Of a stretch of DNA of 47,655 nt, positions 5,285-47,655 are shown in pieces. Under the pieces are notes generated by a model. It did no database searches. It was not told the DNA's origin and saw only the letters and a list, made by a program, of their open reading frames with translations. Position numbers and translations under genes: made by a program. Position 1 is the stretch's first letter; every line of letters begins with the position of its first letter. The stretch is from NCBI GenBank assembly GCA_043814055.1, contig JBDRKL010000013.1:1-47655 (forward strand). Direction: 5' to 3'. This DNA comes from an archaeon (GTDB lineage Archaea > Undinarchaeota > Undinarchaeia > Undinarchaeales > JBDRKL01).

Positions 5285-5764
5285 TTATTCCTTCTGCTCT
5301 TCAGTTACCTTTTTCTCAGGGTTTGCAACAGTTATTCCCTCAATGCCGAAGCTTCTCTCAATTTCGCCAATCATCATATTGCAGTCCTGCTTAATCCTGT
5401 CAAGATAAACCAGCATTCGTTCTTTCTGCTTTGCAATTTCCTCAAGCTGCTCATACTTCTTTATAGCTCTGTGGAAATCTCCAGCCTCAATAACAGTGTA
5501 AGGCGACTTGTTCATGTCCTTTGCAACGCGCTTGCACATCTCGCCGAGCCATTCGTTCATCTCTTTCTTCACGCGGGCGCGAATCATCTTTTCCTTGTCC
5601 AGCGAGCTCTTCATGTGCGCAACTACGCGCGCGTTCGGGAAAGGCAATCGCTCTTCATCCGCCAGTTCCTGCTCAAGCGCAACATCCTCGTTTGCTACTT
5701 CTTCAGCCGCTGGCTCTTCTGCTGCAGCTTCCTTGTTTTCTATTTGTTTTTCTTCTTTTGTCAT
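5285..5764 (-). CDS. Atypical histone-fold protein with acidic N-tail and coiled-coil C-terminus
   Basis: LPFPNARVVAHMK..VKKEMNEWLGEMCKRVAK..TVIEAGDFHRAIK resembles histone/NF-YB fold; E-rich N-terminus. Confidence 0.65.
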   Translation of the reverse strand: MTKEEKQIENKEAAAEEPAAEEVANEDVALEQELADEERLPFPNARVVAHMKSSLDKEKMIRARVKKEMNEWLGEMCKRVAKDMNKSPYTVIEAGDFHRAIKKYEQLEEIAKQKERMLVYLDRIKQDCNMMIGEIERSFGIEGITVANPEKKVTEEQKE

Positions 5765-5765
5765 T

Positions 5766-5840
5766 TCAAAGCACCTCCCATTTTACCAGCTTTGAAATAC
5801 ACACAAAGCTGGTTAGCTTTGTCAACCTTTGTTGTGTCAT
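5766..5840 (-). other. 76-bp twin-hairpin module containing a 24-codon leader ORF (MTQQRLTKLTSFVCISKLVKWEVL)
   Basis: SD gagggtga upstream; ends TGA-A-ATG; stem ATTTCAAAGC/GCTTTGAAAT; homologous to 24764-24838. Confidence 0.65.
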
Positions 5841-5872
5841 TATATTTCACCCTCTTTTTGAGTATTAAAACA

Positions 5873-5916
5873 ACACGCATGAATGCGTGTGTGTAAATCA
5901 TTTTATGATTTACGAC
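5873..5916 (+). repeat. Twin-hairpin module (hairpin-GT-hairpin-GAC)
   Basis: ACACGCAT/ATGCGTGT then GTAAATCAT/ATGATTTAC then GAC. Confidence 0.55.
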
Positions 5917-5969
5917 TACATTATTTTATTGATTTTTAGAGGTTAAATAGGTATTGTTCGCCCGATTTT

Positions 5970-6242
5970 TCACTCCAACCCATCCTTCGCAAGCTTGTCA
6001 AAAACACTGTCCTTCAGCTTAATCGGTTGAATCTTCAAGCCCTTTGAAATCAAATCATCTGTCTCAGGCATGTCAATGTACTCCGGGTTCAAATAGCGGT
6101 AAAGTATCCAAACCACTGTGCCCATATTTATTTGAGTGCGCCGTTCAATCTCGCGGACCCAGAGGAATTCCGAGCCCTCTTTCTTCGCGTCGTATAGGCA
6201 TTTCACAATTCTATTAAAGTTCTTCTTAGTGGTCTGGTTCAT
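5970..6242 (-). CDS. Small winged-helix/HTH DNA-binding protein
   Basis: LWVREIERRTQINMGTVVWILYRYL HTH-like pattern, 90 aa. Confidence 0.6.
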   Translation of the reverse strand: MNQTTKKNFNRIVKCLYDAKKEGSEFLWVREIERRTQINMGTVVWILYRYLNPEYIDMPETDDLISKGLKIQPIKLKDSVFDKLAKDGLE

Positions 6243-6243
6243 T

Positions 6244-6263
6244 TTCTATACAAGTGTATAGAA
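6244..6263. promoter_or_regulatory. Perfect 9-2-9 inverted repeat (candidate operator)
   Basis: TTCTATACA-AG-TGTATAGAA between a minus-strand TATA-like box (6270-6279) and the ATG at 6242. Confidence 0.6.
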
Positions 6264-6303
6264 GTGGTAGTATTAAAGGGTTACGGCTATTGATTTCCAT
6301 AAC

Positions 6304-7200
6304 CTATCGTGTAGTAATTATTGGATCTTCTAATACAATCACTGTATGCTCAGCCTGAGCAATTAATCCCCTCTCCTTTTCACGTAGCGCAGGGTACTGA
6401 TACAGCGCTCTTGCATTAACCAATTCTCTCAGCGCAAGACTCAGCTTCATCCCGCCAATATCCTTCTCAAGCCACCTTCTCGCAAACGGCAGTCCCTTGA
6501 ACTTCGTAACTCCAAGCTCAAGAATCCGCCTCGCTTCCCGGTTTCTTACAGATCTCGGCGCGAGAAACTCGTAAATATGAACCTCCTCTGAGTCAATCAC
6601 AGCTCCATACCCATTAGTTGAAAAGGGTTCTATCGCAATCGCCTGCCCCTCTTCAAGCACTGTCTTGTCATCATTTTTGATATTCGGAATAGTCAATCCA
6701 GTGTGCAGGCTGTACTGCTCAAGCCCGTGCCCGGTGAGATTGCTTATCGGCTTGAAACCTTTCTCAACAATCGCCTCCTCAATCTTCGTCCCAATCTCTC
6801 CAAGCGTAACCCCTGGCCTTATGCACTCAAGCCCAACCTTAAGCCCAGCCTCAGCAGCCTCAATCAGACCAAGCCTGGTCTCGTCCTTGTCCATGCTCAG
6901 CGTAAACGCCCTGTCCGCGATATACCCGTCAAAATGAACCCCCAAGTCAACCTTGACCAAGTCAGTTTCTCCAAAAACAAGCTCGGTCTTCAGGTCAGGA
7001 GTATAATGCGCAGCCATCTCATTGATTGAAATGTTCAGCGGAAACGCAGGCCCGTCACTCTCGTTCCAAATCAATCCCTCAACCTTGTCCGCAATATCCA
7101 AAACTTTAGCCCCTGGCTTCACAATATCCCGCGCGAGCTTCTCAGCTTTCTTGGCAACTTCCCCAGCCTTCCTGTATTTCTCTAAAACTGCATCGTCCAT
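6304..7200 (-). CDS. map: Methionine aminopeptidase type II
   Basis: AAHYTP, KVDLGVHFDGYIAD, NLTGH, AIEPF, QAEHT motifs. Confidence 0.96.
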   Translation of the reverse strand: MDDAVLEKYRKAGEVAKKAEKLARDIVKPGAKVLDIADKVEGLIWNESDGPAFPLNISINEMAAHYTPDLKTELVFGETDLVKVDLGVHFDGYIADRAFTLSMDKDETRLGLIEAAEAGLKVGLECIRPGVTLGEIGTKIEEAIVEKGFKPISNLTGHGLEQYSLHTGLTIPNIKNDDKTVLEEGQAIAIEPFSTNGYGAVIDSEEVHIYEFLAPRSVRNREARRILELGVTKFKGLPFARRWLEKDIGGMKLSLALRELVNARALYQYPALREKERGLIAQAEHTVIVLEDPIITTR

Positions 7201-7260
7201 AGGATATGCTTATCGCTATTGCTTCATATAAATTGCGCCAGCCCCTTCTCACAGGTATTT

Positions 7261-10200
7261 TTACTTCTTGGTGTAGAAGTAATAACCCAGACCAGCCACA
7301 ACAAGTATCAATACAACTGCCAGTGGAAGCGTCCAGTCCTGCCTAACTCCCTGCTCTTCAGCTACCACCGCGGCTGTCGGCGCCTCATCTGGTACTGGTG
7401 CGCTTGGGGTTGCAGTTCGCCTAACGCTTTCGGTTATTTCCTGCTTCTCTGCTTCCTCATACAGCTTAAAGGTTATGTCAGCAACTCCATTTTGTATCCT
7501 GTTCAGCAGAAGCTCAAGGTCAAGCATGCCATCACTGTCCACGTCAACGCGCGTAATCTTGCCTGGTTGTAGTGTTACCAGTATTGGGTCTGAGGTTATC
7601 CTCATAATAACACTTCCCGCACTCACACTATCTATCTTTGCCGTGTGACTGGAGCCCTCAACCCTGAAACCTACACTGTCGCCTTCAACCATACTCAGTG
7701 TTTTCTCAACACCCTCTTGCAAGGTGGGCGCGCTGCTCCCAAGGCCGCCTGTGTCCCCTGTTCTTGATGGACCACTTGGCGCTGAACCTGTTGTAAAGGT
7801 CCAGGTGACATTAGCCCCCTGCTGGTTTCCATATATATCTGCAACATCCTCTTTCACAGTCACGTTATATTGCGTGGCATAGGAAAGCGCATTGCTAAAG
7901 GTGTACACAAATGCAGTTCCGCTCGTATTCGTTATGGTGCCGCCCACAGAAGTTCCACCGCTTGTCAGGTTCACATAGAACGTGCTCGTATTCACGGTTT
8001 CATTGTTCATCCTGGAGTCATTGAAGGTTACGTATACGGCTGTTGCCAGCCCACTCAGAGTTCCATTCGGTGAAACAGATAGCAAAGTTGGCAACGAACC
8101 ATTATCAATCCACAGTGTTCTGCTTGCTGACTCTCCGCTGTCATTCAGCGGAGTTGTGCAATTTATGTACCACGTATTGGAACCATTTGCAATTGTTGCA
8201 TTGGCTGTTATAACTGTTGCAGTATTGTTTATCGCGCTTGAGTTGTTTCCATACTGCGTGGTGCCAACATACAAATTACAGTCTGCAGTACTCTCTGCAT
8301 TGTGCACAAACGTGAAGTTAAAGTCCGGGGTTGCATCTGTTGTTATGTTGTTGTCTGCCGGAGAATTCAGCGTTATGTTCCCTGTCCCTGTCAGGCTGAA
8401 ATCTATCTGCGGCCCAACACCTGAGAAGTGCGGCAGTTTCATCCATATCATATTGTTCGTGGTGTCTATGTAGCACAGTCCTGAACTCAAGTTCACGTCA
8501 GATGAATTGCAGAGCGCTTTGCTGCCATTTAGGTACGACCTGTACGTGCTCGTGTTGTAGTCTTCGTATCCAACCGGTACATATTCCGTTCCATTTGACT
8601 CATTCCAAACCTCTGTCCAGGTGCTCGTGTCATCCGCATCAACGTCATAGAAGCTGTCCATTGACACATATGCCAGGCCTTCCTGTACAGTGCCTCCTCC
8701 GGTTGTGGTGTCCTCGTATGGGAACCCGACTATGATATAGTCATATATCTCCGGGCCGGTGCTCGCGAACTTCCAGACCTCTTCCTTGCTGATATTCCCT
8801 TCTGTTGACTCGTTTGACTCGTTATCAAACATCGCGTCCGGCGGACCTGATGCCATCATGTCAACATTCACATAGTGAACTGTGATTCCTCTCACAGCGT
8901 CTGTCATCCTCAGGCTAACCTTTGCGCCGCCTATAACAGCTGCAAACATTCCGGACTTGAAGGAGTCCTCTCCCCCCATGCCGGAGCTTCCTGCCGGGCT
9001 ACACAGTGTCATGTTCGGGTTTGGCACGTCGCAGACCGCAGTGCTGTTCAGCATTGTCATGTTTATAGCCATAGCCTCATCTTTCATTCCTTTCGGGTCA
9101 AAGCCGTACAATGTTATTATTACTGGGTCGCTCTGAAGCTGCGCGATGGTTAACTTCATCTTTCTTGGAGCTCCCCCATTCTGCGCGAATATTTCAATGT
9201 TCTGCACCGACGCGTTCAGGAGCGGTAACTTGAAAATTCCATTCGCGTTCTCAGTATTTTCCCCTCCTACGTCAGTCATAAAGCTGAACGCAGACCCGTT
9301 GTATGCCGTGTAATTAACAGTCATTGAAATGTGCGCCTGGCTTATGGCACTTCCACTGGAGTTAACAACGAGGAACGTCTTCTTGGTCGTGTTTATCAGC
9401 GTGTTCCCCCCATCATTTGCCGTCAGGTTGTGCTCTGTCACGTTCCCAACCAGCGGTACTGTCGTGAAGTTTAAGTCGCTGAAATTCGCCTGTGTCATTG
9501 TAATGTTCCTGTAGTTTGCAGTGTAGAGCTCATTTCCTGAGCTGTTGTATGCGTTCGCGAACAGCAGGAAGCTGGAGTTTTCTGAAGATACTGGCACTGA
9601 TATATTATAGAATCCGCTCGTGGTATTATAAACCGCAGCGCCGCTCCAGTTGTATGGAACATTCCACTGCATAAACACCATATTGCCCGGCTCCATCAGG
9701 TATGCAACAACCTGCATCTCAGTGAAGTTGCCACTGCCCCCGTATGAAACATATCCTGTAATAGTCTGCACGCTTTCACTCAGGTTGAACTGCCTGGCAT
9801 AAAGGTCTCCGTTGCTGAAGGCTGAACCATTGTTGAAGTCCCATGCGAAAGGCATTGACATATTTGGATAAAGCATCAGTGAGTAGTTCCTATCTTTTCT
9901 TAGCCAGATGACGGTTTCGTTCGTGTAGTTCTGGAACTCCATCGCTACTGCGTATCCAAGTTTCTGGTCCTTTAGCATATACTTGTAGTTGACGGTTTCA
10001 TCCGAACCATTTATTGCAGTAATGTTAACACCAACAGCCTCCCTGAGGTAAAATCTTATCGTGCTGCTTGTAAGCATCTGCATTTCCCCTATGCCAAACT
10101 CTGGCAGGCTGGGTCCTATGTAGCTGACGCTGGTTCCTGTGTAATTCCTTATAACCGGCTTGTAGTACCAAGAATTGTTGTTGGGCACAGTGAGGTTAAA

Positions 10201-16955: not shown

Positions 16956-17234
16956 CGAGCGCAGCGAGTTTTTGGTCAATCTTTTTTGACAAACCTCACA
17001 AATAAAAAGGTTGGTGGGAGGGAGGAGATCTCCGGCAAATTCCGGAGGAGAATTAGGCGGCATTCGACTACGTCGAAGCCTCTATGTCATTTAGCATACG
17101 AGCGATAGCGAGACTTTTTGGTCAAGCTTTTTCAAGCGAACAGAGTGAGCGCAGAAAAAGGTTGGTGGGAGGGAGGAGATCTCCGGCAAATTCCGGAGGA
17201 GAATTAGGCGGCATTCGGCTGCGCCGAAGCCACC
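16956..17234. repeat. 151-bp-period direct repeat downstream of tRNA-Pro, with tRNA-3'-end-like sequence and hairpins
   Basis: 17004-17066 identical to 17155-17217; minus strand reads ...CCCTCCC-A-CCA; cgagcg..gcgag-tttttggtcaa-ctttt..aaaaagg block also repeated. Confidence 0.85.
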
Positions 17235-17279
17235 TTGCCAAGCAATTTGATTGCCTTTGGTTATGTTTGTGAAGATGAG

Positions 17280-17377
17280 TGGGAGAGGCCGGATTTGAAC
17301 CGGCGACCACGGCGTATTCCTGTTTCTTTTTAAGAAACACCCGAACGCCGTATCATACCAAGCTAGACCACCCTCCC
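17280..17377 (-). tRNA. tRNA-Pro(CGG) with a 24-nt intron at 37/38 (17316-17339); CCA not encoded
   Basis: GGGAGGG/CTCTCCC acceptor, CGGCG-TT-CGG-G|intron|A-CGCCG anticodon arm, GCCGG-TTCAAAT-CCGGC T arm. Confidence 0.95.
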
Positions 17378-17436
17378 AACTTCTAGCGAAGTTGACACGC
17401 TAGGCGACATTCGCGCTTCGCGCGAAGTCACCTTGT
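17378..17436. repeat. Palindromic element between tRNA-Pro and tyrS (bulged-A hairpin family)
   Basis: AACTTC/GAAGTT-GACAC.. then GGCGAC-A-TTCGCGC-ttc-GCGCGAA-GTCACC. Confidence 0.6.
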
Positions 17437-17508
17437 GCGCAACAGCGCTCGCTTGGACTCTTTTAATCTCCCACAACCTATATAATATTATAGATTCTAA
17501 ACCCCCCT

Positions 17509-24304: not shown

Positions 24305-24762
24305 AGCTGTTCCTCTATCAGGTCCTTCTCCATAATCCGCTCGCAGAACTTGCATCTCAGCCTTATCGGGTCCTTGCTCTCAACAGTGAACAGCGGAACA
24401 ATCGGCTCGCCCTGGTTCGTTACGCAGTTTGGGTTCGCGCACTTTATTGAGTCCTCAATCTCGTCCGGGACTTCAACTTTTTTCTTCTCCGCGACAGTGT
24501 AGTCCTTTATGATGTTTATAGTGGCTTTTGGGGCAATCAGCGCGAGCCGGTTGATTTCCTTTGGCCTAAGTATCTTGTCCTCAATCTTTACAATGTCCTT
24601 TGTCCCTGACTTTCCCTTGACATTCATCGCCACCGCAACAGTGTATTCGCAGTTCTTGTGTATTCCAAGCGCCTTTGCAACGCTCGTACTGCTCCCCGCA
24701 GGCAGGTGGTCAATAACTGTCCCGTTCTTAATCTTCTTAATCGTTAGTTCTTTTTCGCTCAT
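24301..24762 (-). CDS. pyrI: Aspartate carbamoyltransferase regulatory chain
   Basis: IKNGTVIDHL, KDIVKIE, CANPNCVT..RCKFCE. Confidence 0.96.
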   Translation of the reverse strand: MSEKELTIKKIKNGTVIDHLPAGSSTSVAKALGIHKNCEYTVAVAMNVKGKSGTKDIVKIEDKILRPKEINRLALIAPKATINIIKDYTVAEKKKVEVPDEIEDSIKCANPNCVTNQGEPIVPLFTVESKDPIRLRCKFCERIMEKDLIEEQL

Positions 24763-24763
24763 T

Positions 24764-24838
24764 TCAAAGTCTCACCTCCTTCTCCAGCTTTGAAATGCAC
24801 ACGAAGCGAACCAAATTCATAGAGCTTTGTGTCGTCAT
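24764..24838 (-). other. 76-bp twin-hairpin module containing a 24-codon leader ORF (MTTQSSMNLVRFVCISKLEKEVRL) between pyrB and pyrI
   Basis: ATG overlaps the pyrB stop (ATGA) with SD ggaggt; ends TGA-A-ATG of pyrI; stem CATTTCAAAG/CTTTGAAATG. Confidence 0.65.
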
Positions 24839-25767
24839 TTTACCTCCACCCCCAGAACGCCTGCAAGCAGCGCCATCCTGACCGGAACTCCGTAGTATGC
24901 CTGCTGGAAATACCTTGCGAATTTCGTGTTGTCCACCTCGGAGTCAATTTCATAAACCCGCGGCAGAGGGTGCATCACAATCATGCCCTCCTTTGCCTTC
25001 TCCAGAAGTTCAATGTCAACCTTGTGTTCACTCTTAACTCGCTCATATTCCTCCGGCGCCGGGAACCTCTCTTTCTGAATTCTCGTGACATACAGCACAT
25101 CAACATCCCCTACAACATCGCTCAAACTTTCTTTCTCCTCAATTTCAACCTCAAACTTATGCTTCAGCGAAATCGTGAAGTCCCGTGGCATCTTCAATTC
25201 TTTGGGTGAGGCAAAAACCATGTCCGCCCCGAGCATGGCGAGCGCGGCGGACAGTGAGTGGGCAGTTCTTCCATACTTCAAGTCTCCTGTTATCGCAACT
25301 TTTAATCCCTTGATTTTGCCCTTCTCCCGTATCATTGTGTAAAGGTCAAGAAGCGTTTGCGTCGGGTGTGCGTGCGGCCCGTCTCCGCCGTTAAGTATCG
25401 GAACCTTTGAAACATCAGCCGCGTGCTTTGCCGACCCCTCAACAGGATGCCGCATCGCTATAACGTCGCAATACTGCTCAACAGTCCTTATCGTGTCTGC
25501 AAGATTCTCCCCCTTCTTCACAGAAGTTCCTGCAGTGTCAGAGAACCCAATCACAGAGCCTCCGAGCCTTAGCATAGCGCTCTCAAAGCTCAGCCTCGTC
25601 CTGGTGCTCGGCTCAAAAAACAGCGTTGCAAGAATCTTCCCCTTCAAAAGGTCTGATTTCCCGCTCTCAATAACTTTCTCGCACCTCTCGGCCTGTTTCA
25701 GGATATAGTCAATATCTTCCTTGGTCAGGTCTGTAAGCGTGAGTATGTCTTTGCCTTTAATGCTCAT
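24835..25767 (-). CDS. pyrB: Aspartate carbamoyltransferase catalytic chain
   Basis: FFEPSTRTRLSF, HPTQTLLD, GDLKYGRT, MHPLPR; start at ATG 25767 after SD gggaggt. Confidence 0.97.
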   Translation of the reverse strand: MSIKGKDILTLTDLTKEDIDYILKQAERCEKVIESGKSDLLKGKILATLFFEPSTRTRLSFESAMLRLGGSVIGFSDTAGTSVKKGENLADTIRTVEQYCDVIAMRHPVEGSAKHAADVSKVPILNGGDGPHAHPTQTLLDLYTMIREKGKIKGLKVAITGDLKYGRTAHSLSAALAMLGADMVFASPKELKMPRDFTISLKHKFEVEIEEKESLSDVVGDVDVLYVTRIQKERFPAPEEYERVKSEHKVDIELLEKAKEGMIVMHPLPRVYEIDSEVDNTKFARYFQQAYYGVPVRMALLAGVLGVEVK

Positions 25768-25887
25768 TCTAAACCTCCCTATAATTAGAAAGTTAATTTG
25801 ACTCAAGGCACTTAAAAAGGTTGCGGTGCCCCAATGAGAAACAATATATATTATGGGAAACACAGAATAATTATCTGATTATTTTTT

Positions 25888-26066
25888 CTAAAGTTTCCTT
25901 GCGAAAGTCAAAAATTCCACACAGACTTTGCTCTTTATGACTGTGTGTCTTCCTAACTTTTCTATACTTTTCGTGCAAAAGTTAAGAATTCCACACAGAC
26001 TTTGCAATTTGTGACTGCGGGTCTTTTTGACCTTTCTTACAATTTCCTTGCGAAGGTCAAAAATCC
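25888..26066 (-). repeat. Tandem 74-75-bp modules reiterating the trmI 3' end
   Basis: FLTFARKL*, FLTFARKV*, FLTFARKL* with stops at 26037, 25962, 25888; shared gcaaagtctgtgtggaatt. Confidence 0.85.
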
Positions 26067-26768
26067 AGTATGCCCAACAGGTATTGTAACAGGCCTTGAC
26101 CTGTCCTCTCCAATTTCCCAGTCCCTAATTATGCACTCTAGGGTCTCAACATCCCCAAAACCAATCAGGCCTTTCTTGAACTTGACCGCCTGCTCCACAG
26201 TCGGGCAGTAGCCAACAACGAAACCGCCGGGCTTCAGCGCCTTGTGCGCCTCCGGGAGCGCCTTCGCCGGCTCGCTCATATCCAGCATCACAACATCCAC
26301 ATCCTTCTCAGCAATCCCCTTTGTAATATCCTTGTTTTTAATATGGACGTTTTTGCACCCGCACTTCTCAATGTTCGCCTTCGCGACCTTGTAGAAATCC
26401 TCCCTCAGCTCGTAAGTGTAAAGCTCCTTGACCATCCCAGCCACTGCGATTGTGAACCCTGCGCTCCCTGTCCCTGCCTCAACAAGCACATCATCCTTTG
26501 TCAGCCCAACCTTCGCAGCAATAATCCCCACATCCTTCCACATCACAATCTGCGGCAGGCGCTTGATTTTTTTGAGCAAATCAGGAACCCGCGGCTCAAC
26601 CACGTTGAACTTCTCGCCCTTGTGCGTTGTGACTTTAATCCCAAACTTCTTCTTCGCCAGGAATCCAAGGTCAATAGTCCCATACTCTGTGCTGAACTTT
26701 GTATCATCCACAGTAACCAGGTAATTTTTCTTTCCAATGAGCAAAACCCTGTCCCCTTTTTTAATCAT
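26037..26768 (-). CDS. trmI: tRNA (adenine-N1)-methyltransferase TrmI/GCD14
   Basis: RLPQIV..KD, EAGTGSA, YELREDF, LDM..P, RP...VGHTGFLTFARK. Confidence 0.92.
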   Translation of the reverse strand: MIKKGDRVLLIGKKNYLVTVDDTKFSTEYGTIDLGFLAKKKFGIKVTTHKGEKFNVVEPRVPDLLKKIKRLPQIVMWKDVGIIAAKVGLTKDDVLVEAGTGSAGFTIAVAGMVKELYTYELREDFYKVAKANIEKCGCKNVHIKNKDITKGIAEKDVDVVMLDMSEPAKALPEAHKALKPGGFVVGYCPTVEQAVKFKKGLIGFGDVETLECIIRDWEIGEDRSRPVTIPVGHTGFLTFARKL

Positions 26769-26807
26769 ATTATTTAGATAGTGCAACGGGCATTATAATC
26801 CTTGCCC

Positions 26808-28160: not shown

Positions 28161-29722
28161 ACCTAATCAAGCAACCGAGAATAATCATACTTCTCTTATT
28201 CGTGATTCTCTCAATCCTCTCAATCCCAACATTCAACGACGAGGGCGTGCAGATATCATACGTGCTTCCTGAGTCCCCTTTCTACGGCCAGCTAACCGAA
28301 GGCCAGGTGATAACCTCGCTCAATAGCCACCCTGTCCAAAACCTTGAGGAATACGCAGCAGAGGTTGCGAAAATTCCAACAGACCAGTCCCTTGCAATAG
28401 AAGCCAATGGAAAGACCTACAGAGAAATCGTGCAGGCAGACAAGACGGACCGCAACGCGGCTTATCTAGGAATTCACGTAACAACCCCTGCAACGAGCAA
28501 CATAAATCTTGGCCTGGACCTGCAGGGCGGCGCGCGTGTAATACTCAACCCAATCCCGGCAGACGGGGTTGAAATGACCGACGAGCTCTTTGACACCACA
28601 ATGAGCGTTCTGATGACGCGAATGAACATGTACGGCCTCAAAAACGTTTACATTCGCAAGGTAAAAGATGTTGACGGCAACACTTTCATGGAAGTTGAAA
28701 TGGCTGGAGAGGGCTCTGAGCAAGTGGTTGGCATAGTGAAAAGCATAGGCAAGTTTGAGCTCCGCATTCTGAACGAAACAATCCTTGGCGGGGATGCAAT
28801 AGTGCGCCAATCAATAGGCGAGCCAACAATTGACTCGCAATCCGGTTCGTACGAAGTTCCATTCACGCTCACCGCTGGCGCAGCAAAAGACCTCCAGCAG
28901 GGGTATGCAAAAGTCGCGCCGCGCAACCCAACAACATGCTCCCAGGACACGGACTGCGACGAGTCATACGCATGCTCGTCCGGCATCGGTTCTGGAATGT
29001 GCCTGCCGCAAATTCAAATGTATCTTGACGACAGGGAAACCTTCTCAGCTCCTCCGCACCAGTCACTCCACCAGACCTGGCTCGCCGGCGAGAACTACAA
29101 AAACCTCAGGATAACCACAGGCACAATAGAGCAGGCTCAGGAAGTCTACGTAGTTCTCAAGGCAGGCCAGCTACCTGGAGAGCTCAAGGAGCTTGAAGTG
29201 CTCTCGCAGGACTATGTTGACCCAAAGCTCGGCGAAGAATTTTTGCAGGGCGCAATCTTTGCAGCCATTGCAGCCCTCGTCGCAGTAAGCCTTGTAGTTT
29301 CAATTAGATACCGCAAGCTCAAGGTTCTCCTTCCAATAATCTTCATGGACATCTGCGAGATTATCATAATCATCGGCCTTGCGTCAATGATACACTGGTC
29401 AATTGACCTGCCTGCAATAGCCGGTATCATAATGGTGCTCGGCATTGCGGTTGACCAGCAAATAGTCATAACTGACGAAGTGTTCAGCGGTAAGAGCGCA
29501 AAGTGGAGCGTGAAGCATCAGGTCAAGGGAGCTTACAAAATCGTTATAATCGCAGCATCAACCACAATCGCAGCAATGTTCTCCCTCCTATTGCCAATGT
29601 TCACAGGGCTTCACATGCTTAGGGGCTTCGCAATAGTCACAATCCTCGGCGTTTTGATTGGATTGTTCATAACCCGCCCTGCGTTCGCGAAGATGGCTGA
29701 GATGTTGTTCGGGGAAGAGTAA
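28142..29722 (+). CDS. secD: Protein translocase subunit SecD (with PDZ-like domain and Cys-rich insert)
   Basis: LGLDLQGG, VLKAGQLP, IDLPAIAGII..GIAVDQQIVITDE, LRGFAIVT. Confidence 0.93.
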   Translation: MASKTINLIKQPRIIILLLFVILSILSIPTFNDEGVQISYVLPESPFYGQLTEGQVITSLNSHPVQNLEEYAAEVAKIPTDQSLAIEANGKTYREIVQADKTDRNAAYLGIHVTTPATSNINLGLDLQGGARVILNPIPADGVEMTDELFDTTMSVLMTRMNMYGLKNVYIRKVKDVDGNTFMEVEMAGEGSEQVVGIVKSIGKFELRILNETILGGDAIVRQSIGEPTIDSQSGSYEVPFTLTAGAAKDLQQGYAKVAPRNPTTCSQDTDCDESYACSSGIGSGMCLPQIQMYLDDRETFSAPPHQSLHQTWLAGENYKNLRITTGTIEQAQEVYVVLKAGQLPGELKELEVLSQDYVDPKLGEEFLQGAIFAAIAALVAVSLVVSIRYRKLKVLLPIIFMDICEIIIIIGLASMIHWSIDLPAIAGIIMVLGIAVDQQIVITDEVFSGKSAKWSVKHQVKGAYKIVIIAASTTIAAMFSLLLPMFTGLHMLRGFAIVTILGVLIGLFITRPAFAKMAEMLFGEE

Positions 29723-29723
29723 A

Positions 29724-30203
29724 TCACTGCGCACTTCTCAAAACCATTTCTGCCTTAGCCTTAATCCTATACAGTAAAACCCCGGAAACTGGGGATTCAG
29801 TTGTTCCATATTCATCAAACCCGAGCTTTTTGTAAAACGCTCTTGCCCGAGCATCAATGCCGCTCACCTCAGAATAAATAATATTAGCGCCATCATCCAC
29901 TGCATGCTCGGCAACTTTCCTCATCAGCTTCTTTCCAATGCCTTTCCCAGTTTCAATGGTGCCTATGAAATTTATTTTAACCCTTTTCGGCCTGATCCTG
30001 CCCCATCCATGGACGCGGAAAACCACAAGGCCTGTAATCTTTCCATCACTTTTATACACGAAGCATTTGTGCCGCCTGAGCATTTTCCTAACGAGCTCTT
30101 CAGGCATGTTACCTGGTGGTTTTTCCAGCTTCGCTGCCCGAACATAGACACCAGCCGCTTCCTCCAAATTCTCTCCCAAAAGAAATTCTATGCAGTCTAC
30201 CAT
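29724..30203 (-). CDS. GNAT family N-acetyltransferase
   Basis: [22 protein letters not shown]. Confidence 0.85.
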
Positions 30204-30205
30204 AC

Positions 30206-30393
30206 CAATACTGTATACACAACCATATATAAAAAAACCGCCTATGAATCTCTATATGACCCTAACCCCAGCCCAAGGCAAATTCCTCTTCAGGGGCTTC
30301 ACAATAGTCACAATCCTCGGCGTCTTGATTGGATTGTTCATAACCCGACCAGCATTCGCGAAGATGGCTGAAGTTTTCTTAGGGGAAGAGTAA
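30206..30393 (+). repeat. Duplication junction: AMMECR1 promoter and 5' end fused in frame to the last 102 bp of secD (chimeric 49-codon ORF 30244-30393)
   Basis: 30240-30280 identical to 31813-31853; 30292-30393 similar to 29621-29722. Confidence 0.88.
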
Positions 30394-30397
30394 ACTT

Positions 30398-31213
30398 TTA
30401 CCAGTACGTCCTACAGAAATAGTCGGTTCTAAACCTTTTTATATCGCGGTTTTTTTCATAATTTAGAATATCCACTATTGGTAGCAATCCTTTGGAACCT
30501 TTCTCCCTTCTTTTCACTACAAGATTCGCTAAGTTCAGCATAAATTTGTTAAAGTCCTCTGGCATAGCAAAAACTTGTATAACCACAAAATATAGCCGGT
30601 CTTCATGTGGCTTGTCAAATAATTTCTTCCCTTTTATTTTACTATCTTTAGACAGTCCCTGCATCAGTTTCTTCTTAATCTCTTTCAGGTCTTCAAGATT
30701 CTTGACAGAGCTCATATAGAAAACAAGGCGGGTGGGGTCGTCATGGTCGAGAAGGGCTTCTCTGCTACTTATATACGTAGTGTCCATTGCGAACCTATAG
30801 CTGCCGTTTTTCATTTTAAGTGGCTCTCTCCTGTGCTTGCTCCACTTAAAGTCCATTTCATTTGACTTGTTGTACTTCAAAATACCAACTCTTGGCCACA
30901 GTTTGCTAGTGTCACCCCCACGTCTATCGTCTAGAAGTTCTGCTAGGTTTAGCATAAATCTTTGAAAATCATATATTGGAGCGTGGATTTCTATGACTGC
31001 ATAATATATCTCGTCCCCGTATTTTTTCTTAAACAGCTGCTTTCCTCTTATTTTACTCTCTTTTGACAGCCCTCTCATTAGCCTCTCCGTAATCCCTTCT
31101 AAATCCTTGGACCCTCTGACAGAACTCATATAGAAAACAAGGCGCCTATACCACGGAAATACAAGACCTTCCCTAGTTTCGTCAATAATGCCAAGGGAGC
31201 AATCTATGGTCAT
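30398..31213 (-). CDS. Hypothetical protein made of two tandem homologous domains
   Basis: RLVFYMSSV..LM.GLSK.SKI.GK.LF.K..FMLNLA..IL.Y.K occurs twice. Confidence 0.8.
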   Translation of the reverse strand: MTIDCSLGIIDETREGLVFPWYRRLVFYMSSVRGSKDLEGITERLMRGLSKESKIRGKQLFKKKYGDEIYYAVIEIHAPIYDFQRFMLNLAELLDDRRGGDTSKLWPRVGILKYNKSNEMDFKWSKHRREPLKMKNGSYRFAMDTTYISSREALLDHDDPTRLVFYMSSVKNLEDLKEIKKKLMQGLSKDSKIKGKKLFDKPHEDRLYFVVIQVFAMPEDFNKFMLNLANLVVKRREKGSKGLLPIVDILNYEKNRDIKRFRTDYFCRTYW

Positions 31214-31245
31214 AATTTACTTAAGATTCTCTTCATATATATATC

Positions 31246-31289
31246 TCGCGAAGATGGCTGAAGTTTTCCTTGGGGAAGAGTAAATCACT
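31246..31289 (+). repeat. Third copy of the secD 3' end
   Basis: tcgcgaagatggctgaagttttccttggggaagagtaaatcact ([11 protein letters not shown]). Confidence 0.88.
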
Positions 31290-31776
31290 TAACTCTACAT
31301 ATTTTGTTAAAAACTTCTTGAGTTCTAGCTCGAATCTTGTAAATTCGCGTCCCAAGAATTTCAGACTCTCGTGTTTCATATTCTTCAAAACCGTATTTTT
31401 TAAAAAAAGCCCGTGCACCCATATCAATGCTACTGACCTCTGAATAAATCATTTTCACATTCGCCTCAAAGGCATATATTACAAGATTCTGCAATAGGAT
31501 TTTTCCATTATATCCACCCCTATCCAAAGTACCTATGAAGTGTAGCATAATATGCTTGTGAACTAATCCTTCAACATTGAAAACAACCAGACCGCGTATT
31601 CCTCTCTCCCCTCGCTTTAAGACACGGCACTTTGCTTTCTTAAACTCATCCCCAAGCGTGTCTTTTCGCGAAAAGCTGTTTGTCGGAGTCTGAAACCTCC
31701 TGCACTCTGCATAAACCTTAGTTGCCTCTTCCCAATCTTCTTCCTGAAGTTCTTCCACCCGAATTCCTTCTCCCAT
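31285..31776 (-). CDS. GNAT family N-acetyltransferase (paralog of 29724-30203)
   Basis: GLVVF, FIGT, IYSEVS.ID..ARAF.KK.GF.EY shared with the first GNAT. Confidence 0.85.
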   Translation of the reverse strand: MGEGIRVEELQEEDWEEATKVYAECRRFQTPTNSFSRKDTLGDEFKKAKCRVLKRGERGIRGLVVFNVEGLVHKHIMLHFIGTLDRGGYNGKILLQNLVIYAFEANVKMIYSEVSSIDMGARAFFKKYGFEEYETRESEILGTRIYKIRARTQEVFNKICRVK

Positions 31777-31816
31777 ACAATACTGTAGGGGGCAATGATA
31801 TATAAAAAAAGCGCCT

Positions 31817-32392
31817 ATGAATCTCTATATGACCCTAACCCCAGCCCAAGGCACTTTCTTGCTTCAAATAGCCCGCAGCACAATTGACTCCTTCCTGAGC
31901 GGAGTGAAACCATCGAAGCCGAAATCCTACGACAAGGAATTCGACAAAAAATACGGAGTCTTCGTAACACTCAACAAAAACGAAGAGCTCCGCGGCTGCA
32001 TCGGATACCCAGAGCCAATAAAACCCCTCATCGAAGCAGTAATGGACTCAGCAATAAACGCAGCCACCCAGGACCCGCGCTTCCCCCCGGTAACCCCAGA
32101 CGAACTTCCCGAACTAAAAATCGAAATCACAATCCTAACCCCGCCAAAGCTCATAAAAGTAAGGAACCCGGTCCAGTACCGTCATGAAATCCAACTCGGC
32201 GTGGACGGCCTCATCGTGGAGCGCGGCATGAACCGCGGACTTCTGCTCCCGCAGGTCGCGGCGGAGTGGAGGTGGGGCGAGGAGCAATTCCTCGAGCACA
32301 CCTGCCTCAAGACCGGCCTCCCCGCTGACGCGTGGGAAGACAAGGAAACAAAAGTGTACAAGTTTCAGGGCCAAATTTTCAAAGAAAGCTAA
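31817..32392 (+). CDS. AMMECR1 domain protein (start may be ATG 31829)
   Basis: GVFVTL, LRGCIG, DPRFPP, GLLLPQV, FLEHTCLKTGL. Confidence 0.93.
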   Translation: MNLYMTLTPAQGTFLLQIARSTIDSFLSGVKPSKPKSYDKEFDKKYGVFVTLNKNEELRGCIGYPEPIKPLIEAVMDSAINAATQDPRFPPVTPDELPELKIEITILTPPKLIKVRNPVQYRHEIQLGVDGLIVERGMNRGLLLPQVAAEWRWGEEQFLEHTCLKTGLPADAWEDKETKVYKFQGQIFKES

Positions 32393-35852: not shown

Positions 35853-36053
35853 ATGGCTGAGATACCTCTTGCGGCAATTGAGCGCATAATCAAGAAGGCC
35901 GGCGCAGGCAGAGTTTCTGAGGACGCGAAGGAAAAGCTCCGCGACGTCCTGGAAGAGCACGCGGTGGAAATCGCAACCAAGGCAAACACGCTTGCCCTGC
36001 ACGCAAAGCGCAAGACAGTCAAGAAGGAAGACATACTTCTCGCTCAGAAGTAA
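35853..36053 (+). CDS. Archaeal histone (HMf family)
   Basis: [34 protein letters not shown], 66 aa. Confidence 0.96.
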
Positions 36054-42056: not shown

Positions 42057-42154
42057 TTTCACAACCTTTTTAAACTCCGCCTGGCCACGGAGGTAGGCCG
42101 GGGGCATTCGCTCGTCGCGCTCGCGAAGCCCCTTTCACAACCTTTAAAAACCCC
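42057..42154 (+). repeat. 76-bp twin-hairpin module flanked by a duplicated promoter-like sequence
   Basis: tttcacaacctttttaaactcc (42057) and tttcacaacctttaaaaacccc (42133); CTCCG/CGGAG and GGGGC-A-TTCGC..GCGAA-GCCCC hairpins. Confidence 0.75.
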
Positions 42155-44403: not shown

Positions 44404-45528
44404 ATGCCAGCAACAATAATAATCGGAACCCAGTGGGGCGACGAGGGAAAAGGGAAAGTGGTTGACTACTTTGCAGAGGACGCTGACATAGTCGCGCGTT
44501 TCCAGGGCGGCAACAACGCTGGCCACACTGTCATCGTTGACGGCAAAACGTTCAAGCTGCACTTTCTCCCGTCCGGCATAGTCCGCGGCAAGGAAATTGT
44601 TCTCGGGAATGGAATGGTTCTTGAGCCGAAAGCGCTTCTTGATGAAATAAAATATGTTGAAGACGCCGGGCTTGACGCTTCAAAAATACTAATCTCTGAA
44701 AAAGCCCACGTGATAAGCAAGGAAAATCTTGAAACCGATGCCAAGGACTCTAAAATCGGAACCACAAAAAAGGGCATTGGCCCGACCTACTGCGCAAAAG
44801 TCTCCAGAATCGGAAAGCGAATCCACGACATTCTTGAAGATTATCCAGGCCTGAAAAAATACGCCGGCGACGCGTCACTCCGCATAAATGAAGCTCTTGA
44901 AGCTGGAAAAAACATAATTCTTGAAGGCGCCCAGGGCACAATGCTTGACATTGACCACGGCACATACCCGTTCGTGACAAGCTCAAATACAGTGGCTGGA
45001 GCCGCGTGCACCGGGCTCGGCGTGGGTCCGATGAAAATAGATCGGATAATTGGAGTAACCAAGGCATACACAACCAGAGTCGGCAATGGTCCATTCCCAA
45101 CCGAGCTCGGTGACAAAATCGGCAAGCACCTGCTTGAAACTGGCAAAGAGTTCGGCACAACAACAGGCCGGCCGCGAAGGTGCGGATGGTTTGACGCTGT
45201 GCTGGTAAAATACGCTGTCAGAATAAACAGCGTTTCAGAAATCGCGCTCACAAAGCTTGATGTTCTCTCTGGGCTTGAAAAACTCAAGATTTGCACTTCT
45301 TACGAAATTGACGGGAAACAAACAACATCCCCTCCAGTTAACCTTGAAAACTGCAAGCCAGTCTACGAGGAAATGCCTGGATTTGACCTCAGCACATCGG
45401 TTTCCAAGTATGAAGACCTCCCTGCCGCAGCCAAAAAATACATTGAAAGGCTTGAAGAATTGGCTGGCGTTAAAATCGCTATGCTTGGCACAGGACCGGC
45501 ACGAAGCGATACCTTTATAAAGGGGTAG
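44404..45528 (+). CDS. purA: Adenylosuccinate synthetase
   Basis: QWGDEGKGK, GGNNAGHT, EGAQG, YPFVTSS, TTGRPRRCGW, TKLDVL. Confidence 0.97.
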   Translation: MPATIIIGTQWGDEGKGKVVDYFAEDADIVARFQGGNNAGHTVIVDGKTFKLHFLPSGIVRGKEIVLGNGMVLEPKALLDEIKYVEDAGLDASKILISEKAHVISKENLETDAKDSKIGTTKKGIGPTYCAKVSRIGKRIHDILEDYPGLKKYAGDASLRINEALEAGKNIILEGAQGTMLDIDHGTYPFVTSSNTVAGAACTGLGVGPMKIDRIIGVTKAYTTRVGNGPFPTELGDKIGKHLLETGKEFGTTTGRPRRCGWFDAVLVKYAVRINSVSEIALTKLDVLSGLEKLKICTSYEIDGKQTTSPPVNLENCKPVYEEMPGFDLSTSVSKYEDLPAAAKKYIERLEELAGVKIAMLGTGPARSDTFIKG

Positions 45529-45572
45529 TGGCTACGCATACTTGTTAAAAAGCTTACCAGGAGGTGGAAATC

Positions 45573-45863
45573 ATGGCTGAAAAGAAGTATTACGTACTCA
45601 GGACTGCCAATAAGGATACAGAACACGTTTTCTCAGGTTCTGCTCCGCGACAGGCAGCTCTGAAAGCCGCTACCCGAAACTTTACTGACATTAAGCTGAG
45701 GGAGAGAGGCAGGCGCAACCAAGACGGCACATACTCTGTGCACAACTTTAAGGGATCTCGAAAGAAGGTCTCTGCACCTGCAAACGCCCCAAGCTGGCTG
45801 CCAAAGAACGTGTGGAAGCCAACAGTTAGAAAAGTTGGAGTGGACAGGATCAAGAAGCTCTAA
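45573..45863 (+). CDS. Non-histone chromosomal protein MC1
   Basis: YVLR..EHVFSG.APRQAALKAA..IKLRERG..P.WLP..WKP.V. Confidence 0.9.
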   Translation: MAEKKYYVLRTANKDTEHVFSGSAPRQAALKAATRNFTDIKLRERGRRNQDGTYSVHNFKGSRKKVSAPANAPSWLPKNVWKPTVRKVGVDRIKKL

Positions 45864-45880
45864 GCGATTAGATGCTAACC

Positions 45881-45912
45881 AAGCAAGGGCGGAAGCAACG
45901 CCCTTGCTTTTT
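45881..45912 (+). terminator. Hairpin plus T-tract
   Basis: AAGCAAGGGCG-gaagcaa-CGCCCTTGCTT-TTT. Confidence 0.7.
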
Positions 45913-45918
45913 ATATTT

Positions 45919-45995
45919 TTTAAAATTCCAGCGAATTCCTTTGAAATCCGCTGTCTTTAAATCACCACTATGCCTCTTAGCTTGGTGATTTAAAA
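45919..45995 (-). repeat. 70-bp twin-hairpin module at the 3' end of the membrane-protein gene
   Basis: TTTAAATCACCA/TGGTGATTTAAA-GAC-AGCGGATTTC/GAATTCGCT-GGAA-TTTTAAA; TTTTAAA repeated at both ends. Confidence 0.65.
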
Positions 45996-46553
45996 ACCAA
46001 TTAGAAACTCAGCACCATATTTAATAATCAAATAGCTCAGCGGCACGTGGATGAGCGCGAACTTGAAACAGCCAACGAAGCTGTGCCCGGTCACTGTGTA
46101 GAAAATTCCAGTGCCCAAGTCATAAATCAAGACAAGAATCAAACCCGCAAGAGCATAAGTCCCCATAATTCCATAAACCCACGGCGCAAGCACAGCAAGC
46201 GCGCTCATCCCAATCATTGCAACAACAACATCCTGCGGCCTCTCAATTGTGAAAAACCTGCTCAACCCAAGCGCCGAAGCGCCAACCAATGCCCCGGCAA
46301 GTGAGCCATACTTCAGCGCAGCAACAAACATGGCGAGCGTAACGAGCTCAATGGGCCAAGCATCAGGAGCAAACTTCTGCGGAATCCGTGAGCCAACCGC
46401 GAGCAGTAGCAAGAATCCTACAAAACCTATATCGGCGTAAGCGAATCCTAAAAAGATGTTGGTGGAGAGGACTGCGAGGAGAGCAATTGCTACGAAGCCA
46501 ATGTATTTCGCAAATTCTTTTGGAGTGGTTTGGACAACTTCTTTACGGCTCAT
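45990..46553 (-). CDS. Multi-pass membrane protein, possibly ECF S-component-like
   Basis: About six TM helices, IELVTLAMFVAALKYGSLAGALVG pattern. Confidence 0.6.
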   Translation of the reverse strand: MSRKEVVQTTPKEFAKYIGFVAIALLAVLSTNIFLGFAYADIGFVGFLLLLAVGSRIPQKFAPDAWPIELVTLAMFVAALKYGSLAGALVGASALGLSRFFTIERPQDVVVAMIGMSALAVLAPWVYGIMGTYALAGLILVLIYDLGTGIFYTVTGHSFVGCFKFALIHVPLSYLIIKYGAEFLIGF

Positions 46554-46554
46554 T

Positions 46555-47415
46555 TCAAACTGTAACCTCTTTTTCCCCTTCTAGCGAGGCAGTACCGCCA
46601 ACTTGGACTTCTTGGATGGTCTTCCCTTTTGTCTTTAATCTCACTCTAATCTCTGACGGCTTATTCATCGTGTATCCCTGCTCAAAAATAAGATTTTTAT
46701 AATCCACAGCCACTTTGTGCTTGTAAAGATAACATCCTAAAATCCCGCTTGAAGTGCCTGTTGCGGACTCTTCTGGTATTCCATAAAGCGGAGCAAAGTT
46801 CCTGCAGTGTGCAGTTGAGTTATTTTTGGTTTCAAGTGTAAAAACGTGCAGCCCCATCACATCATACTTCTTACTAAGTTCAGTTATTCTCTTAAAATCT
46901 GGTTCAAACATTTCTAAAGATTTAATATCCTTGATTGGCACTATTATATCTCGCAACCCAGCTGAAACAATCTGGCTAGGCAGCTCTGCACTAAGTTGCT
47001 CTTCATCCAAATTCAAACAATCAGCAATCTCTTTCTTGTTTATTTCTTCAAAAAATTTGGGCAGGGCCAAATCCATAAACACCAAATCTTTTTTAATTTC
47101 TATTCCCAAAACACCAGCTCTTGTTTCCTGTTTGTATTTTCCTGGCTTTGCTAATCCTTTCTTCGCCAACAATGAATAAGTTGCAATGGTCGCATGTCCA
47201 CAAATATCAATTTCCTTTGCCGGCGTAAAAAATCTAACTTTAAAATCTGCTTTATCCGATTTCTGAACAAACGCAGTCTCAGAAAATCCAACTTTCCTCG
47301 CAATAGATAACATCTCCGAATCAGAAAGCGAATCTGCATCCAGCACAACACCTGCTAGATTTCCGCCTCCTGCTGTTTTTGCAAAGGAATTCAAAAGATA
47401 TACTTTTATTTTCAT
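46555..47415 (-). CDS. PhzF family isomerase/epimerase
   Basis: GGNLAGVV, FSETAFV, RFFTP..EIDICGHAT, EESATGT, EQG; likely start ATG 47415. Confidence 0.92.
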   Translation of the reverse strand: MKIKVYLLNSFAKTAGGGNLAGVVLDADSLSDSEMLSIARKVGFSETAFVQKSDKADFKVRFFTPAKEIDICGHATIATYSLLAKKGLAKPGKYKQETRAGVLGIEIKKDLVFMDLALPKFFEEINKKEIADCLNLDEEQLSAELPSQIVSAGLRDIIVPIKDIKSLEMFEPDFKRITELSKKYDVMGLHVFTLETKNNSTAHCRNFAPLYGIPEESATGTSSGILGCYLYKHKVAVDYKNLIFEQGYTMNKPSEIRVRLKTKGKTIQEVQVGGTASLEGEKEVTV

Positions 47416-47426
47416 TTTTGAAAATA

Positions 47427-47655
47427 TGGTAGCGGGGGATGGACTCGGGAACGCAGAACCTAACGGTTCCGCACCTCCCAAGGTGGCTCTCCACTTTGTG
47501 AAGCCACTTTTGTGATTAGTAGCGGGGGATGGACTCGGGAACGCAGAACCTAACGGTTCCGCACCTCCCAAGGTGGCTCTCCACTTTGTGAAGCCACTTT
47601 TGTGATTAGTAGCGGGGGATGGACTCGGGAACGCAGAACCTAACGGTTCCGCACC
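47427..47655 (-). repeat. Perfect 90-bp tandem repeat (about 2.5 copies, runs off the window), each copy carrying an initiator tRNA-Met-like 3' end
   Basis: Units start at 47429, 47519, 47609; minus strand CGAGT-CCATC-CCCCGCT-A(CCA) followed by two hairpins. Confidence 0.88.

Follow-up and report, generated by a model that had tools for sequence, protein, structure and literature searches.

Does one kind of mobile element lie behind the small hairpin-bearing repeats at gene boundaries in a 47,655-nucleotide (nt) stretch of DNA from an archaeon of the Undinarchaeales (assembly GCA_043814055.1, contig JBDRKL010000013.1, positions 1 to 47,655 of the forward strand; hereafter the window), or are several kinds of repeat present? 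An earlier reading of the letters alone (the original prediction) proposed a single system of ~75-bp twin-hairpin modules that reiterates whatever gene terminus it adjoins. The gene content of the window is archaeal (MC1, family-B DNA polymerase, RadA, Cdc48, HMG-CoA reductase, PyrB/PyrI, GCD14/TrmI methyltransferase and SecD/F), and the lineage is poorly sampled, with the closest relative of its TrmI protein at 80% identity and the next at 61% or less. Atlas neighbours of one window protein hint at Altiarchaeota or Methanobacteriota, which we take as a lead and no more. Small hairpin-bearing repeats do lie at gene boundaries here without damage to the genes, as had been proposed. Our best account, which we hold with a probability of about 0.5, is that they are of three independent kinds: an insert on start codons that is like the interspersed repetitive units of mycobacteria (MIRUs; family A), a palindrome that is like REP (repetitive extragenic palindromic) sequences (family H), and a constrained tandem array at a gene end (family B).

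We cut out the modules named in the original prediction and compared them in 66 pairwise local alignments, each with 300 shuffles. Apart from the self-control, the pairs whose score was reached by no shuffle were the two modules of family A (A1–A2, z 14), the two units of family B at trmI (z 25), and the three copies of one element within family H (E1–E2, z 35; E2–E3, z 14; E1–E3, z 3.5). Another member of family H, D, was weakly related to these (D–E1, z 3.3, reached by 4 of 300 shuffles; D–E3, z 4.3, by 1 of 300). Similarity was at chance level between A and B, and between either of them and D, E or a 90-nt unit at the end of the window (F); that unit and the module at 45919/45989 (C) had no sequence likeness to any other module. 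Judged by these alignments, the repeats are genuine but form at least three unrelated sets, A, B and H, and a suspicion voiced in the original prediction, that its two motif classes were separate families, is borne out by the shuffle tests. We also built one model for H (R1) and one from A (R2); scanning the window with filters off revealed no additional copies, and R2 scored only 7.4 bits on the B array.

The lack of similarity between A, B and H, together with that low score, counts against a single structure-defined, non-autonomous mobile system, in which a ~75-nt twin-hairpin module copies the boundary signal beside it and is moved by an HUH/Y1-type nuclease acting on single-stranded DNA hairpins. 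True boundary reiteration does occur in B (~35 nt) and in D (22 nt), as such a system would have it, but reiteration beyond a few bases is seen only in these two cases and is not a general rule. Nor did the window proteins include such an enzyme: no Y1, REP-associated tyrosine transposase (RAYT), integrase or Cas1 family was found among 47 window proteins searched at E values up to 1e-5, or among 10 proteins, of which 9 had been given no family by that search, compared at E values up to 0.05, in agreement with the original statement that no HUH/Y1-type enzyme is encoded here. We therefore regard a single mobile system as very unlikely, and come back below to the features that speak for it.

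Family A consists of two homologous 76-nt modules on the minus strand, at the two start codons where spacings of 76 bp (5764/5840 and 24762/24838) had first been noticed. Copy A1 (5765..5840) occupies the stretch from an old ATG at 5840-5838 to the working ATG, at 5764-5762, of a gene for a 159-aa histone-fold-like protein, a description that is a lead only (a histone-fold family occurs in 12% of the members of its Atlas neighbours). Copy A2 (24763..24838) lies between pyrB and pyrI, both confirmed by the family search, with the pyrI ATG at 24762-24760; the first ATG of the module (24838-24836) overlaps the pyrB stop codon (24837-24835) as ATGA. The copies are 75% identical over 60 nt and 78% identical over a 131-column alignment, and score 101.9 and 100.4 bits, respectively, with R2. 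They share a 19-mer found twice in the window against 0.05 occurrences expected, a count that none of 100 shuffles reached. The opposite strand of A1 also matches R2, at 24.3 bits, because the arms CAAAGC/GCTTTG are common to both hairpins. Both modules begin with the former ATG and stop a single base short of the working one, as TGA-A-ATG, and cutting out the 76 nt restores an ordinary junction of Shine-Dalgarno sequence and ATG at both genes, plus the ATGA overlap with the pyrB stop in the case of pyrI. The 47.7 kb contain ~48 starts, and each of the two modules coincides exactly with one of them.

Each module carries a frame of 24 codons followed by TGA (5840-5766 in A1; 24838-24764 in A2, where TGA stands one base before the pyrI ATG), and the two frames read MTQQRLTKLTSFVCISKLVKWEVL-stop and MTTQSSMNLVRFVCISKLEKEVRL-stop. 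The last third of the module is a hairpin in which TTTCAAAG pairs with CTTTGAAA, with perfect 10-bp arms in both copies (5763-5772 and 5789-5798 in A1; 24760-24769 and 24788-24797 in A2). The hairpin, which we describe overall as one of 8–9 bp, has a 3' arm that abuts the new ATG, and its loop of 16–18 nt (16 nt in A1) holds GGAGGTG, a second Shine-Dalgarno sequence; the hairpin is present in the centroid fold of both copies. By eye, two 3-nt shifts of the GGAGGTG motif cancel, so that frame and loop length are both kept. The 26 nucleotide differences between the copies translate into 11 residue differences, fewer than random substitutions would give (P = 0.007), which is modest support for the short frame being of importance.

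In our analysis the simplest reading of family A is an insertion that keeps its gene expressed: a short insert whose targets are start codons and whose make-up renders it harmless at such sites. Ribosomes starting at the old signal, or finishing pyrB, would translate the short frame and open the hairpin, stop at TGA, and restart one base later at the ATG of the gene; fresh ribosomes could also load at the module's own Shine-Dalgarno sequence. The insert may have spread by transposition or by copying. MIRUs, as outlined in PMC12548453, are apparently mobile, insert at start codons, and cause little cost on insertion because a reading frame inside them is coupled to the gene. Family A is likewise a short repeat at a start codon or between cistrons (both copies) with an internal short frame coupled to the flanking genes, in A2 through the ATGA overlap with the upstream stop; with its frame coupled in this way, insertion of A should also cost little expression. 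The likeness drawn here is one of description, and the host of A is an archaeon. Downstream coupling in A runs stop, one base, start (+1), as opposed to the 4-nt overlap (−4) given for MIRUs in PMC12548453; A brings its own Shine-Dalgarno sequence in a hairpin loop; and it occurs in single units rather than tandem arrays, with two copies known.

Like miniature elements of the MITE (miniature inverted-repeat transposable element; definition as given in PMC6009581) or IS200/IS605 type, the modules are too short for a transposase, and A has a hairpin near each end, as have the ends of IS200/IS605. Unlike a MITE, A has ends that are not inverted repeats of each other, as read by eye, and its 6–7-nt flanking repeat is not significant. 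IS200/IS605 elements, in the account of PMC6006769, have ends with small subterminal hairpins, are found in archaea, and target the lagging-strand template. A differs in its translated-looking frame and ribosome-binding site, and no transposase was among the window proteins searched. As for strand, both copies of A are on minus and all copies of H on plus, which is too few for a test of bias. Two further readings of A were rejected: that the Shine-Dalgarno loop was copied from the module's own target, since cross-controls were as good as matched pairs (the loop of A1 resembles its own flank no more than it does the flank of A2), and that the module is a bulge-helix-bulge intron, since by eye its two junctions have the same sequence rather than complementary ones.

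The junction between phzF and the gene for a 187-aa protein (46551-46580, minus strand) ends in ..EKEVTV-stop and shares TTTGAAATGAGC with the 3' end of A2, with 79% identity over 38 nt. We did not count it as a third copy of A, reading the likeness as an in-frame Shine-Dalgarno sequence plus the shared TTTGAAATGAGC. The sequence TTTGAAATG, for which 1.08 occurrences would be expected in the window, is found there 5 times, and minus-strand gene starts account for 3 of these. Just upstream of A1, behind a gene for a 90-aa protein, stands a pair of short-looped hairpins (5860-5925, minus strand; fold z −4.64) that looks like a terminator pair and is by sequence unrelated to the named modules.

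A different explanation would make all these modules non-mobile, cis-acting RNA signals that arose in place: A a translational leader, whose upstream reading frame and hairpin gate the ribosome-binding site; B and C 3'-end or terminator hairpins; and H a leader or trailer around a tRNA gene and a gene of the DUF167 family. The architecture of hairpin 2 of A fits such a leader, with a Shine-Dalgarno sequence in the loop and ATG at the stem foot in both copies. So does the strong enrichment of perfect-stem hairpins (at least 7 bp, loop 3–20 nt) between genes, where 17 of 46 fall in the intergenic 6.4% of the window. (Several have unusually long loops of 15–18 nt and T-rich 5' arms, and one stands inside the gene for a 271-aa protein, at 30815-30850.) We nevertheless consider in-place origin unlikely. 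The unrelated genes pyrI and the histone-fold-like gene share leaders that are 75–78% identical, with the old ATG kept in place, which argues for copying and not for independent origin. No Rfam family matches any module, either: at the gathering threshold the only match in the whole window was a tRNA at 17280-17377, and E-value scans of three module regions gave chance-level matches only.

Family B (25884..26064, minus strand) is a tandem array of 2.4 units of 74 and 75 nt, starting inside the last ten codons of trmI (coding region 26037-26768, minus strand; GCD14/TrmI methyltransferase). The stop-region repeats of 74 and 75 bp described at trmI are therefore real: Tandem Repeats Finder reported the array (period 74, 2.4 copies, 76% matches) as one of only two in the window, the other being at 47429-47655. 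The array repeats the last 30–35 nt of trmI, and each unit combines a copy of the gene end, reading (G/E)FLTFARK(L/V)-stop, with a CACACAG..CTGTGTG hairpin. TrmI itself ends in PVGHTGFLTFARKL-stop, the usual C-terminus of the family (relatives end in ..HTGFLTFARK(L/V/I)); past the real stop, unit 2 reads EFLTFARKV-stop and unit 3 EFLTFARKL-stop. An 11-bp inverted repeat (26024-26034 / 26053-26063) spans the real stop codon of trmI, its 5' arm in the coding end and its 3' arm after the stop. As read by eye, three changes in the 5' arm of the unit 2 hairpin are matched in its own 3' arm, and unit 2 has one G–T pair, allowed on the sense strand only; the latter speaks for an RNA signal arisen in place.

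The unused copies in the array have the look of gene ends with a past or an occasional use. Of the 10 differences between units 1 and 2, 7 fall at third codon positions, and one Arg codon is altered at two positions with the residue unchanged. The peptide is preserved beyond what random substitutions would give in all three unit pairs (P = 0.0004, 0.014 and 0.0003). Unit 1 differs from unit 3 at 5 positions and from unit 2 at 10. Unit 2 follows the TAA in frame and has 15 codons free of stops, and a second frame is open through all units; we judged neither significant. We suggest that B is a local tandem array of the trmI gene end and its hairpins, in which unused copies have diverged under coding-type and stem-pairing constraint. 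They may be former working gene ends, displaced by recombination with the DNA of diverged relatives, or units that unequal exchange shuffles into the expressed position.

B also has the outline of a CRISPR array, with a 35-nt repeat, a 39–40-nt spacer and a period of 74–75, but we rejected this reading: the spacers are ~80% identical, the repeat is a gene end, no Rfam CRISPR match reached threshold, and no cas family was found in the window. For both genes next to these repeats the longest frame starts too far upstream: that of trmI spans 26037-26786 (minus), where relatives start with MIKKGD (243 aa, ATG at 26768), and that of pyrB spans 24835-25863 (minus), where the PyrB family match begins at residue 38 of a GTG-started frame.

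Gene ends are also reiterated at a second locus (29621-31858). The 3' end of secD (29621-29723) recurs at 30292-30394 (90% identical) and at 31246-31289, and the promoter and first 12–14 codons of the AMMECR1 gene (31793-31858) recur at 30220-30285 (92%). Bracketed by these copies are two GNAT paralogues and a gene for a 271-aa protein without a family, in DNA of low GC content (0.415). The flanking copies are 86–92% identical, whereas the GNAT paralogues they bracket are only 37% identical. In a chimeric frame of 67 aa (30190-30393), the first 12 codons of AMMECR1 run on into the last 34 of secD. The reading frame is preserved in the displaced secD copies, with 8 of 10 differences at third positions (P = 0.02). 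From its sequence, the region looks like inserted segments of diverged homologous DNA rather than a simple duplication.

Could the reiterated gene ends at trmI, secD and AMMECR1 then share one origin, as scars left by repeated integration of diverged homologues, or by an element bringing a replacement gene end, with A and H as unrelated passengers? Each such event would leave the displaced old end downstream. Unused copies that keep their frame through synonymous changes agree with this, as do unit 2 of B, which ends in V like the relative at 80% identity, the contrast at secD between flanking copies and bracketed genes, and the chimeric AMMECR1–secD frame, which is what the joint of a circular or tandem intermediate would give. 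Against it, only ~40 nt separate the copies in B, two such stretches are ~80% alike, and there is no cargo; homologous recombination on 35 nt is unlikely; unit 1 is nearer to unit 3 than to unit 2, unlike a simple series; and no integrase was among the window proteins searched. We treat this origin as possible but doubtful. Integrating elements that restore their target gene repeat its 3' end (attachment-site duplication). B, E and F are head-to-tail arrays as in minisatellites, and B and the secD copies repeat a gene 3' end as in attachment-site duplication; B departs from both in that no cargo lies between its copies, the unused copies look constrained, and the same short spacer is repeated.

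Family H, the third kind in our account, is a GC-rich bulged hairpin found at five loci, all on the plus strand: three around an intron-bearing tRNA gene, one in a duplicated promoter and one in the 90-nt array. Its base is conserved (on one side GGC, a bulged A and TTCG, on the other their partners CGAA and GCC), its top is variable, NTAG stands at its 5' foot, and each copy is preceded by a second hairpin of varying sequence. A recurring hairpin motif is confirmed by count: CATTCG..CGAAG occurs 4 times in the window against 0.70 expected, a number reached by none of 100 shuffles. The stems vary yet stay paired, as had been claimed and as the three compensated changes in the trmI hairpin also illustrate; across the five H loci 90.2% of cells pair, compared with 39–49% when partners are slid, and three pairs are altered in both partners, a number that 8 of 500 shuffles reached. 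H is on plus at all copies regardless of the direction of its neighbours, which is odd for an RNA signal, and all six R1 matches are on plus; minus-strand scores of R1 are the same palindromes read on the other strand.

Copy D (42057..42154, plus strand) lies upstream of the DUF167 gene. Its 22-nt direct repeats (42057-42078 and 42133-42154) are identical at 19 of 22 positions with a spacing of 76 nt, which none of 2000 shuffles reached (we used 2000 per case for all flanking repeats), and the promoter repeat proposed at 42057/42133 is therefore well founded. Between them stand a first hairpin and the H hairpin (~42099-42133), the latter overlapping the first base of the second repeat. We read the 22-nt repeat as a promoter, from its TTTAAA-type box. 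Copies E1 and E2 (17004..17240, plus strand) are two tandem 151-nt units, each with a CTCCGG..CCGGAG hairpin (17030-17047 and 17181-17198) and an H hairpin (17055-17083 and 17206-17234); they are identical over 63 nt, after which an A–T pair at the top of the H stem is changed to G–C with compensation. E1 and E2 are downstream of the tRNA gene and E3 (17378..17437, plus strand; again a first hairpin plus an H hairpin) is on its other side, where it separates the tRNA 5' end from the nearest A/T-rich promoter-like box. R1 scores are 36.9 bits for D and 49.8, 51.8 and 47.0 bits for E1 to E3.

H may be a REP-like structured palindrome that is multiplied along with parts of its flanks, as in the 151-nt and 90-nt arrays, and that in D sits between two copies of a promoter. 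By the definitions given in PMC6006769, REP sequences have a GT[AG]G tetranucleotide 0–2 nt 5' of the hairpin foot and form long hairpins with a bulge of 1–3 nt. All of the GTAG families in the list of PMC3733652 are from bacteria; archaea have been reported to contain REPs of a loosely defined kind, according to PMC12306157. H appears to fit these definitions in part. Like REPs and their compound forms (bacterial interspersed mosaic elements, BIMEs, and REPINs), it is a GC-rich imperfect palindrome of 30–40 nt with a 1-nt bulge, a conserved base and a variable, compensated top; it is intergenic, is reiterated in tandem with flanking DNA, and has a tetranucleotide at the 5' foot, GTAG in D (features as set out in PMC6006769 and PMC3733652). 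Unlike them, it has TTAG, TTAG, CTAG and CAAG at the foot of the other copies, occurs in one orientation, has an unrelated partner hairpin and no head-to-head doublets, and is accompanied by no RAYT among the window proteins searched. By eye we rejected a K-turn or H/ACA reading of H (there are no GA pairs after the bulge and no ACA box), and a C/D-box sRNA reading of the modules in general (no C or D boxes were seen in them); the mobility of C/D-box sRNAs in Pyrobaculum, as presented in PMC6009581, concerns a different element.

The three-family account has to be set against a number of points. For A, we infer the insertion event only from the logic of the junctions, because the flanking repeats (7 nt at A1, reached by 373 of 2000 shuffles, and 6 nt at A2, by 429 of 2000) do not reach significance on their own. 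Family A is known from two copies only, and the overall fold of A2 is no better than that of its shuffles (RNA z −0.12, 83 of 200). Among 185,579 species genomes, a set that does not contain the source genome, the 19-mer core of A had 6 matches, all in bacterial coding DNA without the rest of the module, against ~9 expected by chance on our own estimate; it was absent from every archaeal genome among these species representatives. A conserved regulatory leader would look identical to A in a single genome. For B, if the working copy were the only one constrained, about half of the differences would be expected at third positions, a model that the observed share does not reject (P ~0.07, by hand). 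For H, the covariation score was reached by 29 of 500 shuffles, five sequences giving little power; with ~4 independent loci, its occurrence on one strand has a P of only ~0.12 by our own arithmetic; and exact GTAG is present at one of the five loci (D), several bases upstream of the foot as drawn, where REPs have a spacing of 0–2 nt. Inverted doublets of the BIME or REPIN kind are absent, as is a RAYT among the proteins searched. Finally, the account leaves unexplained a period of 74–76 nt (with 151 as twice that) across unrelated families.

That period is the main argument for the single mobile system introduced above: three sequence-unrelated families share it, with A at 76/76, B at 74/75 and D at 76, and E, at 151, at about twice. 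A and B also share a format of long-looped hairpins, with stems of 6–12 bp and loops of 15–18 nt. By reading, this runs from a CACA/TGTG-based hairpin through a 3-nt linker and a hairpin with a T-rich arm to GAC. The bulged base in the stem of H and its orientation on a single strand, compared with the description of IS200/IS605 in PMC6006769, point the same way. Both the coincidence of period and the shared format were noticed post hoc, however; the flanking repeat of A, at 6–7 nt, copies no signal past the ATG; C and the tRNA cases fail; and F has a period of 90. Folding energy alone is weak for several copies, with z −0.61 for A2 folded as DNA, −0.95 for D and about −1 for the B units as cut. 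The same period and format are the basis of one more reading, to which we likewise attach a low probability: a length-measuring process of insertion or duplication at gene boundaries might add ~75 nt, or twice that, as two long-looped hairpins partly templated by the boundary, with A, B and D/E as products of one machinery. Start, stop and promoter signals would then be copied and not destroyed. In a weaker form, the reading is of an equivalent of MIRUs in archaea, with start codons as its targets and a ribosome-binding site of its own.

Repeats of 151 bp and 90 bp had also been described as reiterating tRNA 3' ends. Both repeats exist, but their units are not tRNA 3' ends: alignment of the real tRNA 3' end with the tail of the 151-nt unit was matched by 408 of 2000 shuffles, and with the 90-nt unit by 1803 of 2000. 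A tRNA-derived repeat or attachment-site fragment was rejected on these chance-level alignments, on the Rfam scan, which found the real tRNA only, and on ARAGORN, which reported no tRNA gene in the window and so missed that at 17280-17377 as well. This gene (17280..17377, minus strand; Rfam tRNA, 47 bits), flanked by the E copies, has an intron of ~28 nt and an anticodon that we read by eye as CGG (Pro). There is no A/T-rich box within ~60 nt upstream of it, because E3 fills that space, and the tRNA may therefore carry a structured leader of ~50 nt.

The remaining H locus is the F array (47429..47655, plus strand), 2.5 perfect 90-nt units that continue to the end of the window, each with one hairpin and an H-like hairpin. 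Tandem Repeats Finder gives period 90, 2.5 copies and 100% matches. By sequence F is not significantly like E or D, and its R1 score of 38.3 bits comes from a training row of that model. At exactly 30 codons, the 90-nt repeat leaves the phzF frame (47429-47655, minus strand) open to the end of the window, probably by coincidence, since the phzF family match begins only after an MKIK start. Contigs often break in unresolved repeats, and an array with 100% identity across 2.5 units that is cut off by the end of the window could be an artefact of assembly, perhaps along with other tandem arrays. As an explanation of part of what we see here, this is highly improbable: the units of B differ by 20–24% and those of E differ outside a 63-nt core, which assemblers do not invent, and A and D are single copies in unique flanks.

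The module C (45919..45994) comprises two hairpins between convergent genes, and these look like ordinary terminator-type hairpins. One has a 12-bp stem and a 15-nt loop across the stop codon of the gene for the 187-aa protein, and the module folds very well (z −5.12), a point in favour of RNA signals arisen in place. The stop-region repeat of 70 bp proposed there (45919/45989) did not stand up, being a 7-nt run of T and A that 160 of 2000 shuffles reached.

A1, the E units and F had no blastn match among plasmids, nor A1 and the E units among phages. Protein searches with a 54-aa frame across E1 and with the first 85 residues of the phzF frame through F gave no matches, in searches that did not return the window's own frames either. 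Two short frames lie in gaps that count as intergenic in the longest-frame map: a short histone-like gene, by reading of the sequence (35853-36053, plus strand), and a small frame (2700-2951, plus strand) with a weak ribbon-helix-helix match (E = 0.0095, under the family cut-off).

What these repeats mean for archaeal biology depends on claims for A, H and the gene-end copies that rest on one 47.7-kb window and are not established. Should A turn out to be dispersed, archaea would have an example of a start-codon repeat kept harmless by translational coupling; A would then be a natural test bed for archaeal termination–reinitiation and, in annotation, a cause of wrongly called starts and overlooked short frames. 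With H, REP-like elements in the strict sense, which have so far been tied to bacterial nucleases, would be known from an archaeon too. The unused gene-end copies at trmI and secD, which look constrained, would record how the DNA of diverged relatives enters archaeal chromosomes at conserved gene ends.

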